DNA of 64,000 nucleotides, taken from the NCBI GenBank assembly GCA_965206645.1, contig CBDBKE010000004.1, forward strand, positions 1,696,001 to 1,760,000, read 5' to 3'. Made by a program: the position numbers and the translations under genes. This DNA comes from Terriglobia bacterium (GTDB lineage: Bacteria > Acidobacteriota > Terriglobia > JAJPHL01 > JAPKYU01). This document shows, piece by piece, positions 32,724-38,952 of the stretch. Under the pieces are notes generated by a model, which saw only the letters and a program-made list of their open reading frames with translations, did no database searches and was not told the DNA's origin. Position 1 is the stretch's first letter, and every line of letters starts with the position of its first letter.

Positions 32724-33152
32724 TCAGGCCGGCACCCAGCCGCTGGAGGCGGCCAACGCCTCTCCCTTCCGGGGCTTGCGGGAATGCTTCAGCAGCGCCC
32801 TGCGGGTAGCGGCCGCGTCCTGCACCACTTCTTCCAACACCGTCAGGTAAGCCAGGAACCGCTCACGGCCTTGTCGGGAGAGGCGGCAAAGTGTCTGCGG
32901 GCGCCGGTTCTCAAACCGCTTCCAGACCTCGACTAGGCCCGCCTCGTACAGCACCTGCAGGTGGCGGCTGAGGTTGCCGTCGGTGAGCGCGCAGAGTTCC
33001 TTCAGGTCAGAGAACAGCACGCCGTCCGGGCGAGTGGCCAGAGTGGTCAGAATTCCCAGGCGCGCGCGTTCGTGCAGCAGCCGGTCCAAGCCTTCGTAGG
33101 CAAAGCGTCCGCCGGTCGGTTGGGTTTCAGACTGCTTCCTCTTCCGAGCCAT
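32724..33152 (-). CDS. Winged-helix transcriptional regulator (ArsR/MarR-like, HTH_34 type)
   Basis: GLDRLLHERARLGIL, FSDLKELCALTDGNLSRHL..L.EAGLV, RRPQT, GRERF..Y. Confidence 0.88.
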   Translation of the reverse strand: MARKRKQSETQPTGGRFAYEGLDRLLHERARLGILTTLATRPDGVLFSDLKELCALTDGNLSRHLQVLYEAGLVEVWKRFENRRPQTLCRLSRQGRERFLAYLTVLEEVVQDAAATRRALLKHSRKPRKGEALAASSGWVPA

Positions 33153-33756
33153 TTCTCTCCAGATTCCAGTAGAGCACCATCGCGGCTGCCAACTGGCCGA
33201 CGCCGAAGGTTGCCCCCATAACCCACGGTGCCAGCGCCTCCCGTCCGGGCAAGTAGTGCAGGATCGCGGCCCCACACACTAAGTAGTACAGGCCCACCCA
33301 GCCGATGGTTCGCGGCAGGTGACGCCGAGAGGCAAATACGCCCAGGCTGACTAGCATCGCCCACAGGCCCGGCAACAAGGCCACCAAATCGGGGTGCCGC
33401 CAAGTCAGGATCCAGGTCAGCAACGCGCCGGTCGTCAGCGAGGGCAGCAGTTGCCCCACCACGATTCGCGTGGTGGGGCGCCGGTGGGCCGAGGCACAGT
33501 TCAGATAGCCATGCAACATTTGCGCGCCAACGCCGGCCGCGCACAGCACCGCGGCCCCCACCCACAGCATGACGTACCACACAGGCTGAACCACGGGGTC
33601 GCCGGCCAACGTCGGCTGCGCCAGCGCCGCCAGCAGCGCTACTACGCCGGTGGCCGCGGCAGGCACGGCTCGGTAGCCGCGGAAGGTTTCCGCAGTCACC
33701 AGGTGCCCGCGGATCGCGCTGATCTGCTCCAGTGCCTCGTGCAGTTCCGGCGGCAT
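33127..33756 (-). CDS. Multi-pass membrane protein co-transcribed with the regulator
   Basis: EALEQISAIRGHL..AETFRGY N-terminus and about six hydrophobic helices; 3' end overlaps the regulator start. Confidence 0.8.
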   Translation of the reverse strand: MPPELHEALEQISAIRGHLVTAETFRGYRAVPAAATGVVALLAALAQPTLAGDPVVQPVWYVMLWVGAAVLCAAGVGAQMLHGYLNCASAHRRPTTRIVVGQLLPSLTTGALLTWILTWRHPDLVALLPGLWAMLVSLGVFASRRHLPRTIGWVGLYYLVCGAAILHYLPGREALAPWVMGATFGVGQLAAAMVLYWNLERNGSEEEAV

Positions 33757-33765
33757 AGCTTTATG

Positions 33766-33780
33766 CTTTGCGTCGCAAAG
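33766..33780. promoter_or_regulatory. Palindromic operator CTTTGC-N3-GCAAAG
   Basis: Perfect 6-3-6 inverted repeat about 10 bp upstream of the membrane gene start, plus an extra CAAAGT half-site 10 bp further. Confidence 0.6.
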
Positions 33781-33897
33781 TATAACAAAGTATATGCAGG
33801 CTGCCTTCCGTATGCAAGCAGAAATTCTTGCCCGCCTGCGGGCAGGCCGCTGGGTTTTGCTATCATGAACGGGAGCGCGCCTGGGAGCCGCCGCCGC

Positions 33898-35298
33898 ATG
33901 AGTCCGGAAGTCGTTCTCATTTCGACCTACGAGCTGGGGCGCCAGCCCTTCGGGCTGGCTTCGCCCGCCGCCTGGCTGCGACAGGCCGGGGCTTCGGTCA
34001 CCTGCCTGGACCTTTCCCGGGAGAAGCTGCGGGAAGAGCCGGTGCGCTCGGCCAACCTGGTGGCGTTCTATGTCCCCATGCACACGGCGACTCGCATCGC
34101 GGCGCGGGCCGTGGAAACCGTCCGTCGCCTGAACCCGCGCGCGCACCTCTGCTTCTACGGTCTCTACGCGCCGCTCAATGAGCGCTACCTTCGTGGGCTG
34201 GGCGCGGAAACGATTCTGGGGGGCGAGTTCGAACAGGGTATGGTTCGGATCCTCGAGCAGTTGCCGGACGGAACCCATGCGCAGAAAGAGCGTCTAGTCT
34301 CGCTGGCGCGCCAAACTTTCCTCGTGCCGGACCGCAGCGGCCTGCCCGGGTTGTCCTCCTACGCGCAGCTAAGGGACGGCCAGGGGCGGCTGCGCACGGT
34401 CGGTTACACCGAGGCCACTCGCGGTTGCAAGCACCTGTGCCGCCACTGCCCCGTTGTTCCGGTCTACAACGGCGCCTTCCGGGTGGTGCAACGGGACGTG
34501 GTGCTGGAGGACATTCGCCGCCAGGTCGCGGCGGGCGCCGAACACATCACCTTCGGCGACCCCGATTTCCTAAACGGCGTCAGGCACTCGCTGGAAATTG
34601 TGCGAACTCTACACCGCGAGTTTCCCCGGCTCACCTACGATGTGACCACCAAGGTGGAGCACCTGCGGAAGCACGCCGCCGCGCTGCCGGTTCTGGCCGA
34701 AACCGGCTGCCAGTTTGTTACCAGCGCCGTCGAATCGGTGGACGACCGCGTATTGCAGCTGCTGGACAAGGGGCACACCCGCGCCGATTTGTACGACGTC
34801 GTGGCGCTATGCCGGCGCACAGGCCTGGTGCTGGCGCCGACCTTTGTCGCCTTTACGCCGTGGATCACGCTGCGAGGCTACTGCGACCTACTGGCGGTAC
34901 TGGACGAGCTGGAGCTGGTCGAGCAGGTGGCGCCCGTCCAGCTCGCCATCCGGCTGCTGATCCCCACCGGTTCACGGCTGCTGGAATTGGAGGAGGTGCG
35001 GCAGCTCGTCGCTGGCGGCTTCGATGAGGCCGCGTTGAGTTACCGCTGGAAGCATCCCGACCTGCGGGTGGACCGCATGTGTGATCAAGTCCAGCGGGCA
35101 GTCTGGCAGGCTGAAAAGCAGGGTCGCTCGCGGCGGGCAATTTTCTCCCAAGTCTGGGAGCTGGCGCATCAGGCGGCAGGCATTTCTACGCAGGCGCTGC
35201 AAGTTCCCGACCCCTACCAGCGCACTACCGTGCCCTACCTGAACGAGCCCTGGTATTGTTGAGCCGAACCCACCGAAGAGCAGTTTGCTCTTGTATGA
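33898..35298 (+). CDS. CUAEP-tail radical SAM selenoprotein (UGA-encoded Sec at 35260-35262)
   Basis: EATRGCKHLCRHCP CxxxCxxC, HITFGDPDF; read-through gives EPWYC-U-AEPTEEQFALV*; SECIS-like hairpin downstream. Confidence 0.88.
35276..35292 (+). promoter_or_regulatory. Putative bacterial SECIS element (apical stem-loop)
   Basis: AAGAGCA-GTT-TGCTCTT, a perfect 7-bp stem; the loop starts with GU 20 nt after the UGA. Confidence 0.7.
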
Positions 35299-35321
35299 AG
35301 CAAGCCTTGTATGAAGCAAGC
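35290..35321. repeat. 16-bp exact tandem duplication CTTGTATGAAGCAAGC x2
   Basis: Directly visible at the rSAM/ATP-grasp junction. Confidence 0.9.
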
Positions 35322-36624
35322 AATGACGCCCCGGCTCCTTCTTCTCGCCACCACCACCGGCTACCAGACGCAAGCGTTTGCCGAAGCGGCGCGTGGCCTG
35401 GGGTTGGAGGTGGTGTTAGGCACCGACCGCTGCCACGTGCTGGAAGACCCCTGGCAGGACGCTGCGCTGCCTCTGCGCTTTGAAGATCCTGCGCACGCGG
35501 CCGATGAGATTTGCCACTACGCCCGCGAGCATCCCATCCAGGCTATGACGGCGGTGGGCGACAAGCCCACAGTGACGGCTGCGGTAGCCTGCCGTTCACT
35601 GGGAATTACCTGGCACAGCCCCGAGGGGGCCGAAGCCTGCCACAACAAGTTCCTTGCCCGGCAGCGGTTCGAGGAAGCGGGGCTGAACGTGCCTGCCTAT
35701 GCCCGCTATTCCACTCGCGACGGGCCGCCTCCGACCGACGGCGGGAGCGTGTCTTGCGTCCCGTTCCCCTGCGTGCTGAAGCCGGTGTCGCTAGCCGCCA
35801 GCCGGGGCGTCATTCGCGCTGACAACCCGGAGCAATTCGCGGCCGCCTTCCACCGCATCGCCGCGCTGCTGGCTAGCCCCGAAATCCAGGTGAAGAAGGA
35901 GGCTGAGACCGAGCAGATTCTGGTGGAGGAGTTTGTTCCCGGGTCCGAATTTGCGGTGGAAGGGCTCATGTGGCGGGGCAGGCTGCGGGTTCTGGCCATC
36001 TTCGACAAGCCTGACCCGTTGGAAGGTCCCTACTTCGAAGAGACAATTTACGTGACGCCCTCGCGACTGCCTGTGAGCGAGCAGGCGGCCCTGACCGAGT
36101 GTTTGGAGCGTGCTGTGCGCGCTCTGGGGCTGTTCCACGGCCCCGTGCACGCCGAGTTCCGCTTGAATGACGGCGGCCCTTGGGTGTTGGATGTGGCTGC
36201 GCGGCCCATCGGCGGCCTTTGCTCGCGCGCCCTCCGCTTCGGTGCGGGTATGTCTCTGGAGGAGCTGGTCATTCTCAATGCCCTGGGCCGGCGCAATGCC
36301 CTGAGCCAGCGCAATGCCCGGGGCGAGTCGCTCGACGGGATTGCCCGGGAAAGTGCAGCGGCAGGGGTCATGATGATTCCCATCCCCGGCGCCGGGGTTT
36401 TCGAGGGAGTGGAAGGGGTGGAAGACGCCTTGCGGGTGCCAGGCGTCGAAGAGGTCCACGTTACCGCCAAGCTGCACCAGAAGCTGGTGCCTTGGCCGGA
36501 GGGCGCCAGCTATCCGGGCTTCCTGTTTGCCCGCGCTTCCTCCCCAGCGGCCGTGGAGGAGGCGTTGCGCGAAGCTCACCGGCGCCTGCGCTTCCGAATC
36601 TCGCCGATGCTCGCGGTTGTCTAA
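35311..36624 (+). CDS. ATP-grasp domain ligase
   Basis: CHNKFLARQRF, PCVLKPVSLAASRGVIR, ILVEEFVPGSEFAVEG, FDKPDPLEGPYFEETIYVTPS, GPVHAEFR; start 35311 or 35323. Confidence 0.9.
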   Translation: MKQAMTPRLLLLATTTGYQTQAFAEAARGLGLEVVLGTDRCHVLEDPWQDAALPLRFEDPAHAADEICHYAREHPIQAMTAVGDKPTVTAAVACRSLGITWHSPEGAEACHNKFLARQRFEEAGLNVPAYARYSTRDGPPPTDGGSVSCVPFPCVLKPVSLAASRGVIRADNPEQFAAAFHRIAALLASPEIQVKKEAETEQILVEEFVPGSEFAVEGLMWRGRLRVLAIFDKPDPLEGPYFEETIYVTPSRLPVSEQAALTECLERAVRALGLFHGPVHAEFRLNDGGPWVLDVAARPIGGLCSRALRFGAGMSLEELVILNALGRRNALSQRNARGESLDGIARESAAAGVMMIPIPGAGVFEGVEGVEDALRVPGVEEVHVTAKLHQKLVPWPEGASYPGFLFARASSPAAVEEALREAHRRLRFRISPMLAVV

Positions 36625-36635
36625 GCGCTGCTTTC

Positions 36636-36914
36636 TCAGCTCTTGGCCTGGGGTGGGACGTAACCGGGTGGGAGGGCGGCTCCTTCGCCAAAAAAGAATT
36701 GCTCCATCTGCCCCTCGATGAGCTTCTGCGCTTCCGGATCGGCCGGGAAGAGCCGGTATTCATTGATGACCATCTTCAGGTGTTCCAGCCACAGCTTCCA
36801 GGCGTCCTGCGAGATATTGTCGTAGACCCGCTGCCCCAGTTCGCCGCTCCAGGGCGGCGCGTCCAGCCCGGGGAGCTCTTTCTGAAACTTAACGCACTTT
36901 ACTTTGTGTGCCAT
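36636..36914 (-). CDS. yggX: Fe(II)-trafficking / oxidative damage protection protein (YggX family)
   Basis: [47 protein letters not shown]. Confidence 0.92.
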
Positions 36915-37090
36915 TGGCTGTGTGCCATTCGCTACGGCCTTTCCTGAGGGTTCCGGAAATCAGTATTTCCGTGGCGGCTCGGGGACCGGCCGCCCACTCC
37001 AAGCTAGCATAGATCGGGACCGGGCGCCACATCGTTCCCCCTTTGTCGTTTCGTTGTATTCGTTGTATTCTTGGTATTCAGGAGAGGAGG

Positions 37091-37426
37091 ATGAACGTGT
37101 CAGAACTGGCCGCAAAGACTTGCATACCGTGTCGCGGCGGAGTCCCGCCGCTCAAAGGGCCGGAACTAGAGGGGCTCAACCGGCAGGTCCCTGGCTGGAA
37201 TGTCGTTGAGGAGCACCACCTCGAGAAAACCTTCCGCTTCCCTGATTTCCGAAGAGCCCTGGAGTTTGTGAATCGGGTAGGAAACCTGGCCGAAGAGCAG
37301 GGGCATCACCCGGATATCTTTCTCGCCTGGGGAAAGGTGGGGGTCAAGATCTGGACGCACAAGATTGACGGGCTGACGGAAAGCGATTTCATTCTGGCCG
37401 CCAAGATTGACGCACTGAGCTCGTAA
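37091..37426 (+). CDS. Pterin-4-alpha-carbinolamine dehydratase
   Basis: CIPCRGG, FRFPDF, AEEQGHHPDI, WTHKIDGLTESDFILAAKID; strong GGAGG RBS. Confidence 0.93.
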   Translation: MNVSELAAKTCIPCRGGVPPLKGPELEGLNRQVPGWNVVEEHHLEKTFRFPDFRRALEFVNRVGNLAEEQGHHPDIFLAWGKVGVKIWTHKIDGLTESDFILAAKIDALSS

Positions 37427-37457: not shown

Positions 37458-38171
37458 ATGAGCGACAGAAAAGAACTGGAGCTTCGCTTCTGTGAGTAGC
37501 TTGGCTTGACCAGGAGGCCGGTGGCAGTGAGCTTTCTCCCCGAGGAACCGACTCAGCTTCCCAGGTTCAGCGGGAGCGAGCCCTCCGGGTGCAGCTTCTG
37601 GCGCCTGGCTGCTGAGGGGCGCACCTTTCACACGGTTCCGGCGGACCACTACAACTGTGCGGTGGGCAGCTACACCCATAACGTCGAGCTTCCGCCGGAG
37701 CGCGCCCGGGAACTGGACGAGACGCTGGGGCTGATGACCTCGGTGGGCTACCTGAGCCTGGACGAGATTCCAAGGATTCCGCGTTTACCCCGGCCGCCGG
37801 CGGCGGTCCTCTATTCGCCGCTGGCCGACGCGCCTATGGCCCCGCAGGTGGTCCTGTTCGCCTGCCGGCCGGCGGCCGCCATGTTGCTCAGCGAGGCGGC
37901 GGCACGCGCCGGTGCGAACTCTTCGCTGCCGGCGCTGGGACGGCCCACGTGCATGGCCCTGCCTGCCGCGCTTTCCGCTGCCGGCGCCGTCACCAGTTTG
38001 GGTTGCATCGGGAACCGGGTATACACGGGGTTGAGCGAAGATGAGTTGTACGTGGTGATTCCCGGTCCCGCCCTGCCGGGTGTAGCCGAGGCCCTGGAAA
38101 CCATCGTCTCCGCCAACCGAAATCTTGCCGCCTATGCCGAGAATCGCCGCCGCGCGCTGGCCTCCGAATAA
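37458..38171 (+). pseudogene. DUF169-family protein with an in-frame TAG at codon 14 (37497-37499)
   Basis: AGGAGG RBS, then MSDRKELELRFCE*LGLTRRPVAVSF; SGCSFW, HYNCAVG, RPTC, SLGCIGNRVYT motifs. Confidence 0.75.
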
Positions 38172-38433: not shown

Positions 38434-38952
38434 ATGAGCGAGCTGCACATTCCTGTTCTGGTTCTCAATGCCACCTACGAGCCCATCAACGTCTGTGCCG
38501 CTCGCCGGGCCGTGGTGCTGATCCTGAAAGGGGTTGCCTCCGCTGAGGAGGAAAGCCGGGCTTACTTTCACTCCCCGTCGCGCAGGGTACGTGTGCCCTC
38601 CGTGATCCGTCTATTGGGATACCGGCGCATCCCTTTCCAGGGCCGGGCTCTGTCACGCAAGAACATCCTGATGCGGGACCGCAACACCTGCCAGTTCTGC
38701 GGCGGGGCCTTTCCGGCCTCGGAATTGACGCTGGACCACATTGTTCCGCGCTCGCGGGGCGGCGATTCCAGTTGGGAGAATCTGGTGGCCTGCTGCCATC
38801 CCTGCAACAACCAGAAAGGTGACCGCCTGCCGGAGGAAGCCGGCATGAGGCTCATCGGCCGACCACGCTCCTTCACCCTGCATACCAGCCGCCACCTGAT
38901 GCACCAGATGGGCAGGTCCGACGCCGCCTGGCGGAAGTACTTGTTCTTCTGA
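38434..38952 (+). CDS. HNH endonuclease (McrA-like, stand-alone)
   Basis: [63 protein letters not shown]. Confidence 0.92.

Follow-up and report, generated by a model that had tools for sequence, protein, structure and literature searches.

A selenocysteine-containing radical SAM protein and its ATP-grasp ligase neighbour in a Terriglobia bacterium: a candidate amino-acid pathway

We analysed a 64,000-nucleotide (nt) stretch of a Terriglobia bacterium (Acidobacteriota; assembly GCA_965206645.1, contig CBDBKE010000004.1, positions 1,696,001 to 1,760,000 of the forward strand), here called the window, in which a gene for a radical S-adenosylmethionine (SAM) protein with an in-frame TGA codon is followed on the same strand by a gene for an ATP-grasp ligase. 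The initial annotation had proposed that this pair makes an organo-metalloid amino acid, of arsenic or a similar element, and ligates it into a peptide-like product. Sequence comparisons indicate that these genes work together as a conserved pair in a small-molecule pathway, which probably makes a modified amino acid or dipeptide. The features that carry the argument are the following.

33898..35298, + strand: radical SAM selenoprotein gene, 466 amino acids, family NF040546 (CUAEP/CCAEP-tail); profile match and translation
34426..34449, + strand: codons of the CX3CX2C radical SAM cluster motif (C177, C181, C184); conservation in 69 family members
34708..34710, + strand: codon of Cys271, a family-specific invariant cysteine; 69-sequence alignment
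35257..35262, + strand: vicinal Cys454-Sec455 codons TGT-TGA; of 78 motif-bearing loci 59 have TGA here and the other 19 a Cys codon
35276..35292, + strand: hairpin resembling a selenocysteine insertion sequence (SECIS), stem AAGAGC/GCUCUU, loop AGUUU; conserved position, covarying stems
35290..35321, + strand: perfect 16-nt tandem duplication (CTTGTATGAAGCAAGC twice) across the radical SAM stop and the ligase start; sequence
35311..36624, + strand: L-amino-acid-ligase-type ATP-grasp gene, 437 amino acids; domains and similarity to 3VOT

The selenoprotein and the adjoining ligase

The open reading frame (ORF) of the radical SAM gene starts at ATG 33898, runs through the TGT-TGA pair and ends at a final TGA at 35296-98, and the encoded C-terminus reads ...NEPWYC-U-AEPTEEQFALV. 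Related loci come from a scan of one genome per species, which returned at least 587 radical SAM-encoding stretches and from which the best 80 loci were kept. At the selenocysteine (Sec) position 59 of these have TGA, 14 have TGC and 5 have TGT, the motif being absent in 2, and in all 78 motif-bearing loci an AEPT..Q.. tail of 10 to 29 residues follows in frame. Nearly all of the closest database proteins listed (119 of 120) end right after ...EPW[YF]C, having been called as if the TGA were a stop codon.

The hairpin begins 13-17 nt past the UGA in the related loci and carries a G-U-containing apical loop (AGKU), either AGUU or AGGUN, on stems that differ from lineage to lineage: GGGACC/GGUCCC, GAGGAGC/GCUCCUU, AGCGGGC/GCCUGCU, CCGGCC/GGCCGG and others. 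At least four contiguous pairs are found in 49 of 60 TGA sequences as against 6 of 19 Cys-codon sequences, a difference that the Mann-Whitney p of 1e-6 overstates because the sequences are related. By our reading of the alignment the remaining 11 TGA sequences have a single A-C mismatch within a longer stem, and in most Cys-codon loci the hairpin is degraded. Folding of the single window sequence over 67 nt past the UGA is unremarkable (z −0.64), the hairpin being visible only by comparison across loci. The genome encodes complete Sec machinery, with selA at 553.5 bits, selB at 309.5, selD at 354.1 and a tRNA-Sec at 78.5 (gathering score 47). The conserved codon, the covarying hairpin and this machinery together indicate that the window protein is a selenoprotein whose TGA is read as Sec, and the initial annotation's reading of that codon is thus borne out. 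The selD gene of the same genome (G000:C2:761488-762411, L008) also carries one in-frame TGA, which would make selenophosphate synthetase itself a selenoprotein here.

By profile the protein belongs to NF040546, the 'CUAEP/CCAEP-tail radical SAM (seleno)protein' family: it scores 638.6 bits (cut-off 500), with its residues 5-464 aligned to model positions 1-467. The runner-up among NCBIfam models is ArsL, NF040542, at 288.4 bits against a cut-off of 450. Pfam recognises the radical SAM core and, below threshold, a B12-binding-like domain at the N-terminus, and a sequence search of the PDB gives a weak, core-only match (9ccb, E 6e-5). The window protein is 33% identical over 413 residues to an RCCLKC-tail protein whose gene adjoins those of ArsM and ArsN1; it is a true homologue of ArsL and a member of the ArsL superfamily. 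Identity as ArsL we reject, both on the sub-threshold score and on the tail, which is C-U-AEP and not CCLKC. The kinship with ArsL and the Sec codon on which the initial annotation built are thus confirmed, but on sequence the protein is best placed in NF040546 as a catalogued, uncharacterised sister family. The available part of the one text naming NF040546 that our literature search found calls the family uncharacterised and notes that its rare CU motif is common to HgcA and SaoL (10.1101/2022.07.06.499078). No function was found in print by that search, which covered main texts. A search combining selenoprotein, radical SAM and ATP-grasp likewise found no paper, though supplementary gene-neighbourhood tables could hold relevant rows.

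Within the cluster motif C181 and C184 are invariant in the 69 family members and C177 is conserved in at least 90%. In an alignment with five RCCLKC (ArsL-family) proteins the C-U pair of the window protein falls onto the CC of CCLKC, and the third tail cysteine is absent. Cys271 is invariant in 69 of 69 family sequences and is Val in all five RCCLKC proteins; it may serve as a third ligand in place of the missing tail cysteine. Cys85 is not invariant in NF040546, and among the RCCLKC proteins it is Cys in the 2 from proteobacteria and Thr in the 3 from Bacillota. The motifs PMHTATR, GGEFE, HITFGDPDF and DKGHT mark the CUAEP family off from the RCCLKC proteins.

The ligase has the domain set of an L-amino-acid ligase (LAL), with ATPgrasp_N at 34.7, ATP-grasp_4 at 119.8 and LAL_C2 at 54.5 bits, all above cut-off. 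Its closest solved relative is 3VOT, the L-amino acid ligase BL00235 of Bacillus licheniformis (E 5e-42, residues 47-422), which according to the available part of the source makes Met-Gly and Met-Met (PMC6920838). No NCBIfam model attains its cut-off, and the protein thus represents an unnamed LAL subfamily. Domains and structure match both point to a dipeptide-type L-amino-acid ligase, in agreement with the amide-bond-forming role first assigned to it.

The two genes are separated by 12 nt if the TGA is read through as Sec, and by 48 nt if translation were to end at 35262. Without the 16-nt duplication that spans the junction, stop and start would presumably overlap as ATGA. The tight operon described in the initial annotation therefore stands as regards the placement of both genes and their close spacing, from which the operon itself is inferred.

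Co-occurrence and gene neighbourhood

Record titles assign the 80 loci to Acidobacteriota, Methylomirabilota, Chloroflexota, Dormibacterota, Latescibacterota, Nitrospira, Actinomycetota, Proteobacteria, Calditrichia and other groups. In 50 of them a homologue of the ligase (35-62% identity) is encoded at most 7 kb away, and the same is true of 44 of the 64 loci that have at least 1.4 kb on both flanks. Most of the 50 linked ligases (42) lie downstream on the same strand, 5 lie downstream on the opposite strand and 3 upstream; for 31 of the 42 the estimated gap is at most 150 nt, and the median estimated gap is 34 nt. The linkage is kept while the gene order varies, as in YggX>radical SAM>ligase, ligase>NfuA>radical SAM and radical SAM>DUF169>ligase.

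The same association was counted in 401 genomes sampled from the phylum, with thresholds of E<=1e-100 for the radical SAM protein and E<=1e-50 for the ligase. The ligase count includes G024, and the YggX count given below includes G152, both flagged as unpublished.

Radical SAM present, ligase present: 68 of 401 genomes
Radical SAM present, ligase absent: 2 of 401 genomes
Radical SAM absent, ligase present: 13 of 401 genomes
Radical SAM absent, ligase absent: 318 of 401 genomes

Either gene is confined to 57 to 60 of the 228 genera sampled. The dependence is asymmetric: in this phylum the radical SAM gene is almost never found without the ligase, and the ligase is sometimes found alone. Where both are present, they lie within 10 kb of each other in 41 genomes, at 11.4 kb in 1, on different contigs in 21 and at 0.77-4.2 Mb on one contig in 5. 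The co-occurrence is therefore independent of adjacency. Two genomes that lack a ligase at the radical SAM locus encode one elsewhere. The two families thus co-occur in other genomes, with the ligase in 68 of the 70 phylum genomes that carry the radical SAM gene, and the lack of co-occurrence by which the initial annotation would have been refuted is not seen.

Other neighbours were counted within 7 kb of the radical SAM gene in the best 80 loci, using Pfam assignments.

YggX: 40 of 80 loci
NfuA-like (IscA-type plus NifU C-terminal domain): 8 of 80 loci
Nfu (Nfu_N plus NifU): 4 of 80 loci
YggX or an Nfu type: 50 of 80 loci
DUF169: 10 of 80 loci
Aconitase: 26 of 80 loci
Pterin dehydratase: 1 of 80 loci

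The corresponding genes of the window, together with the motif upstream of the pair, are:

36636..36914, − strand: YggX (Fe(2+)-trafficking / oxidative-damage protection), convergent with the ligase; NF003817 123.3 bits against 74, PF04362 123.9 against 27
37458..38171, + strand: DUF169 gene with an in-frame TAG at 37497-37499 (codon 14), open from TTG 37506; PF02596 81.1 bits against 27
33858..33866, + strand: TGCTATCAT, the extended −10-like motif named by the initial annotation; present, frequency at chance

YggX is the commonest third neighbour. Where the pair is split it usually remains beside the ligase (G279, G367, G384, G239, G147), and NfuA adjoins the ligase in L101, from a genome without the radical SAM gene. 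In the window the stop codons of ligase and YggX are convergent and 11 nt apart (36622-36638), and the two transcripts must therefore either overlap or end at a common terminator.

DUF169 follows the radical SAM gene in its distribution. Of the 401 genomes 25 have the window subfamily, and in 22 of these 25 the radical SAM gene is present too, though often unlinked; by our reading of the match list, all 16 DUF169 genomes at E<=1e-50 do so. In G034, which has the radical SAM gene and no ligase, DUF169 comes directly after the former. Four cysteines and one histidine are invariant in 10 DUF169 sequences. No match was returned by a sequence search of the PDB, the ESM Atlas returned only DUF169 clusters, and no function was found in the available parts of the literature searched. 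A second copy in the same genome (G000:C3:150177-150836; L092 8127-8837) is intact, 92% identical and has Gln at the position of the TAG; its surroundings are transposase genes and, adjoining it, genes of a type III CRISPR system (RAMP, Csm2, Cas10), which give no clue to its function.

Three loci without a ligase (L046 7001-12909, L058 7001-11252, L103 5977-14144) have the radical SAM gene, DUF169 and a methyltransferase, followed by a CdhD-plus-ferredoxin protein. In L058, the one locus of these scored against NCBIfam, the models are CpaM (NF043040, 254 bits) and the HgcAB-like fusion protein (NF043039, 329 bits). Beyond this cluster lie a further B12-type radical SAM gene in L046 and an aminotransferase gene in L103. 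MerB-like genes are found near the radical SAM gene in L049 and L084.

Acidobacteriota loci are flanked by aconitase and by genes for glucose-6-phosphate dehydrogenase (G6PD), 6-phosphogluconate dehydrogenase (6PGD), 6-phosphogluconolactonase (pgl) and glucokinase (glk). In L039 (10203-14896) a HAD hydrolase and these four genes lie downstream and aconitase upstream. Such a sugar-phosphate gene set together with aconitase recalls the superoxide regulon of E. coli. Thioredoxin, peroxiredoxin, Rdx, rhodanese and a glutamate-cysteine ligase-like gene are also frequent neighbours. Of the followers that had been set aside as possibly unrelated, the pterin dehydratase does not recur, and we reject it as a pathway member; DUF169 co-distributes with the radical SAM gene, and YggX is both the commonest third neighbour and a widespread gene.

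The extended −10-like box lies where the initial annotation placed it, but is no more frequent than chance allows: the window has two copies of TGNTATNAT where 1.09 are expected, a number also attained in 32 of 100 shuffles. A sigma-70 scan of 33500-37100 found 0 sites, and terminator-like sites are at chance as well (3 against 2.7 expected). The second TGCTATGAT motif, at 38272-80, lies upstream of a stand-alone 172-residue HNH endonuclease gene (38434-38952), whose HNH domain resembles that of IscB/Cas9 at 56 bits, below cut-off. In one metatranscriptome study, four runs gave contigs that cover most of both genes at a likeness of at least 95%; such RNA-library contigs prove neither transcription nor a single transcript, and their depths cannot rank genes. 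They show no listed difference at 35260-62 and break at 35292-35319, at the 16-nt duplication. The rest of the window is housekeeping in character, with ThiC, RelA/SpoT, TolQR, SecDF, Tgt, FabF, IlvE, IspH, GlpK, LeuS, GlnA and trehalose genes.

Candidate chemistry and its rivals

The reading that we prefer, with a probability of roughly 0.4, is an ArsL-like transfer onto a soft atom held at the Cys-Sec tail, the amino-acid product of which is ligated into a dipeptide. According to the available parts of two papers, ArsL splits SAM so that methylthioadenosine and an aminocarboxypropyl radical arise, the cysteines at its C-terminus bind As(III), and CCLKC is required for formation of the C-As bond (10.1101/2024.02.01.577332; 10.64898/2026.04.29.721666). 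The tail of the window protein, described as flexible, bears its Cys-Sec pair where ArsL has the arsenic-binding Cys-Cys. Cleavage of SAM as in ArsL would give a 3-amino-3-carboxypropyl radical or an organometallic equivalent, and the aminocarboxypropyl group would be joined to an atom bound to Cys454 and Sec455 and possibly also to Cys271. Selenium, sulfur, or a soft metal or metalloid are the candidate atoms, and the reaction would yield a non-protein amino acid resembling methionine or glutamate, which the ligase would couple, at the expense of ATP, to a second amino acid. The order could also be reversed, with the ligase acting first and the radical SAM protein then modifying the dipeptide. 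YggX and the Nfu/NfuA-type carriers would most likely supply or repair the iron-sulfur (Fe-S) cluster of the radical SAM protein, and DUF169, with its four invariant cysteines, could be an accessory, possibly a carrier of the substrate atom. The general logic of the initial annotation, an amino acid made by the radical SAM protein and ligated into a peptide-like product, is kept as the best available reading, but arsenic as the element is unlikely, no ars gene having been found among the window ORFs scanned. A further step, in which the selenoenzyme forms a carbon-selenium or carbon-metal bond and the organo-element dipeptide serves iron or Fe-S homeostasis, as a cofactor or antioxidant of soil bacteria, we consider rather unlikely as a whole.

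The arsenic islands of the ArsL family offer a parallel. A protein search of 72,556 plasmids found 36 RCCLKC-type genes and 1 CCAEP-type gene. The latter, on the megaplasmid of the cultured thermophile Thermomicrobium roseum (L093, 796591-798027; annotated end ...SWFC), lies between a divergent pyridoxal phosphate (PLP) aminotransferase gene and a major facilitator superfamily (MFS) transporter gene, and no ligase was found on that plasmid. In Alicyclobacillus the RCCLKC gene has ArsM, an MFS transporter, an ATP-grasp protein, a CMD-family gene and ArsN1 as neighbours; plasmids of Bacillus cereus and Priestia carry the same pair of CMD and ATP-grasp genes within ars islands; and in Pantoea and Klebsiella the operon comprises the RCCLKC radical SAM gene, a small ORF, ATP-grasp, MFS, ArsM, a GTPase and an aquaporin. 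On the island plasmids L094, L095, L096, L107 and L108 the ATP-grasp gene usually comes with a small CMD-family gene, an MFS gene and a CobW-like GTPase gene. A separate search for the ATP-grasp protein gave counts per genus that match those of the RCCLKC search (Bacillus 20, Priestia 7, Pantoea 6, Alicyclobacillus 1, Klebsiella 1), from which about 35 of the 36 RCCLKC plasmids would hold both genes; five were inspected and the rest follow from the counts. These ligases provide a precedent for the logic by which a radical SAM enzyme makes an amino acid and a ligase couples it. They also suggest that arsinothricin may be made or exported as a peptide; our literature search found no paper that connects it with an ATP-grasp ligase. 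The window ligase is 26% identical over 304 residues to the Alicyclobacillus protein (E 3e-25) and 22% over 233 residues to that of B. cereus. A specific common ancestry of the window ligase and the island ligases is not supported, since other plasmid LALs score higher; what they have in common appears to be the enzyme class, without demonstrable orthology.

Several observations weigh against ArsL-like transfer followed by ligation. Which bond of SAM is cleaved cannot be read from the sequence. The ligases of the ArsL islands reach 82-88 bits against the window ligase while other plasmid LALs reach up to 139, so that they are not its closest relatives and the parallel may be one of independent recruitment. 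The 13 genomes with a ligase alone argue that the enzyme is not strictly dependent on the radical SAM product, and a check of five near-complete genomes among them found a CUAEP homologue in none, the best matches scoring 57-62 bits. Conversely, Nonomuraea and Methylocapsa genomes with the radical SAM gene have no ligase at E<=1e-20, and 19 of the 80 loci have no partner within 7 kb, although 5 of these 19 have less than 1.4 kb of downstream flank. YggX, finally, is found in 161 of the 401 phylum genomes as against 70 for the radical SAM gene, and in one family in 33 of 33 genomes as against 5 of 33; being spread far wider than the pair, it is a general gene that is often adjacent, and its adjacency may be positional.

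The foremost rival is the insertion of sulfur or selenium, or some other reaction of a 5'-deoxyadenosyl radical, in which Cys271, Cys454 and Sec455 (with Cys85) would hold an auxiliary, possibly sacrificial, Fe-S cluster, or Sec would act as a hydrogen-atom donor. The outcome would be a thiolated or otherwise modified amino acid that goes into a small thiol dipeptide for iron or redox homeostasis. The neighbourhood speaks for such a reaction: an Nfu or NfuA gene lies directly beside the radical SAM gene in 12 of 80 loci, and YggX, the NfuA gene beside the ligase in L101, aconitase, the sugar-phosphate genes and the redox genes all fit it. NfuA rebuilds the sacrificial cluster of LipA. On the other side, ArsL, the closest characterised relative, performs aminocarboxypropyl transfer, and its extra cysteines bind substrate and not a cluster, as far as the available parts of the ArsL papers go; Cys85 varies within NF040546 and is Thr in the ArsL-family proteins of Bacillota, and the wide spread of YggX counts here as well. 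We regard this rival as unlikely, yet as one to be taken seriously.

Considerably less probable is the version of the initial annotation, in which arsenite or methylarsenite is turned into an arsinothricin-like organo-arsenical amino acid and ligated into a peptide. It has in its favour the homology to ArsL, the ligases of the ArsL islands and a two-ligand Cys-Sec site that might suit a methylated trivalent arsenical. However, none of the 58 window ORFs scanned matches an Ars transporter, a reductase, ArsM or ArsN, which agrees with the absence of nearby ars genes already noted and leaves arsenic as a substrate without support; the sole Ars-type matches among them are weak, below-cut-off ones of an ArsR/SmtB helix-turn-helix on the regulator at 32724-33275. 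Nor does an arsenic family rise above cut-off in the related neighbourhoods scanned with Pfam or NCBIfam, whereas all five inspected RCCLKC islands are rich in such families. The window protein does not attain the ArsL cut-off and has no third cysteine in its tail, and its family, which sits amid housekeeping genes, is present in 70 of 401 phylum genomes.

Still more improbable is a pair that modifies a peptide or a protein C-terminus, in the manner of ribosomally synthesised and post-translationally modified peptides (RiPPs), instead of free amino acids. Radical SAM proteins with B12-like domains and ATP-grasp enzymes are both known in RiPP pathways, and the window protein has weak, sub-threshold matches to RiPP radical SAM models (TIGR03975, 19.5 bits). 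But the ligase has a LAL_C2 domain and is similar over its full length to a free-amino-acid ligase, no conserved extra ORF of at least 90 residues lies beside or between the pair in 81 loci, and the pairing is kept at megabase distances, which is unusual for RiPP clusters. That the adjacency is mere inherited synteny with no functional link can practically be dismissed: most of the 80 loci do come from one phylum, whose members keep gene order, but by record titles the pair recurs in varied orders and orientations in Methylomirabilota, Latescibacterota, Nitrospira, Rhodospirillales, Proteobacteria and Actinomycetota, and presence and absence are tightly matched over 401 genomes in which so few genera carry either gene.

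Comparison with known systems

To our knowledge ArsL is one of a handful of radical SAM enzymes that break SAM in the 'wrong' manner and bond carbon to a metalloid. The sister family occurs far more often, with at least 587 species records and a presence in 70 of 401 phylum genomes, and it places Sec at the substrate-binding position. What had been an isolated annotation becomes a testable pathway with a defined gene set, comprising the dipeptide ligase, the DUF169 subfamily and the Fe-S carriers, and with a parallel in the ArsL-island ligases. The natural Cys forms (19 of 78 loci, of the kind found in L042, L081 and L090) would allow easy expression without a Sec-competent host. New here are the DUF169 link, the Nfu-type carriers, the HgcAB-like/CpaM neighbours, the ArsL-island ligase, Cys271 and the asymmetry of the gene pair. 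If the organo-element dipeptide were real, producers of arsinothricin with the RCCLKC, ATP-grasp, MFS and ArsM genes would export it as a dipeptide.

The HgcAB-like fusion and CpaM proteins (NF043039/NF043040) and the MerB-like proteins follow or neighbour the radical SAM gene elsewhere and are absent from the window, the HgcAB-like/CpaM cluster being present in 2 of 80 loci plus one further genome. LipA, BioB and MiaB are radical SAM enzymes with sacrificial clusters that are served by NfuA; an Nfu-type carrier is likewise encoded next to radical SAM genes of the window family, but the kinship in sequence is at the level of the superfamily only. With the L-amino-acid ligases BL00235/3VOT, BacD, RizA and TabS the window ligase has its layout of ATPgrasp_N, ATP-grasp_4 and LAL_C2 in common, but, unlike them, its distribution tracks a radical SAM selenoprotein. 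The nearest system is ArsL (NF040542), which belongs to arsinothricin biosynthesis (arsQML) and has the same domain layout, the CX3CX2C motif and a vicinal Cys pair at the aligned tail position, often with an ATP-grasp ligase encoded alongside, as for the window protein. The tail of ArsL ends in CCLKC, whereas that of the window family reads C-U-AEP, continues for 11 to 29 more residues and has no third cysteine; Sec, found in 59 of 78 loci, Cys271 and the marker motifs belong to the window family; and while ArsL genes sit amid ars genes, those of the window family sit beside iron and Fe-S helpers, none of them ars.

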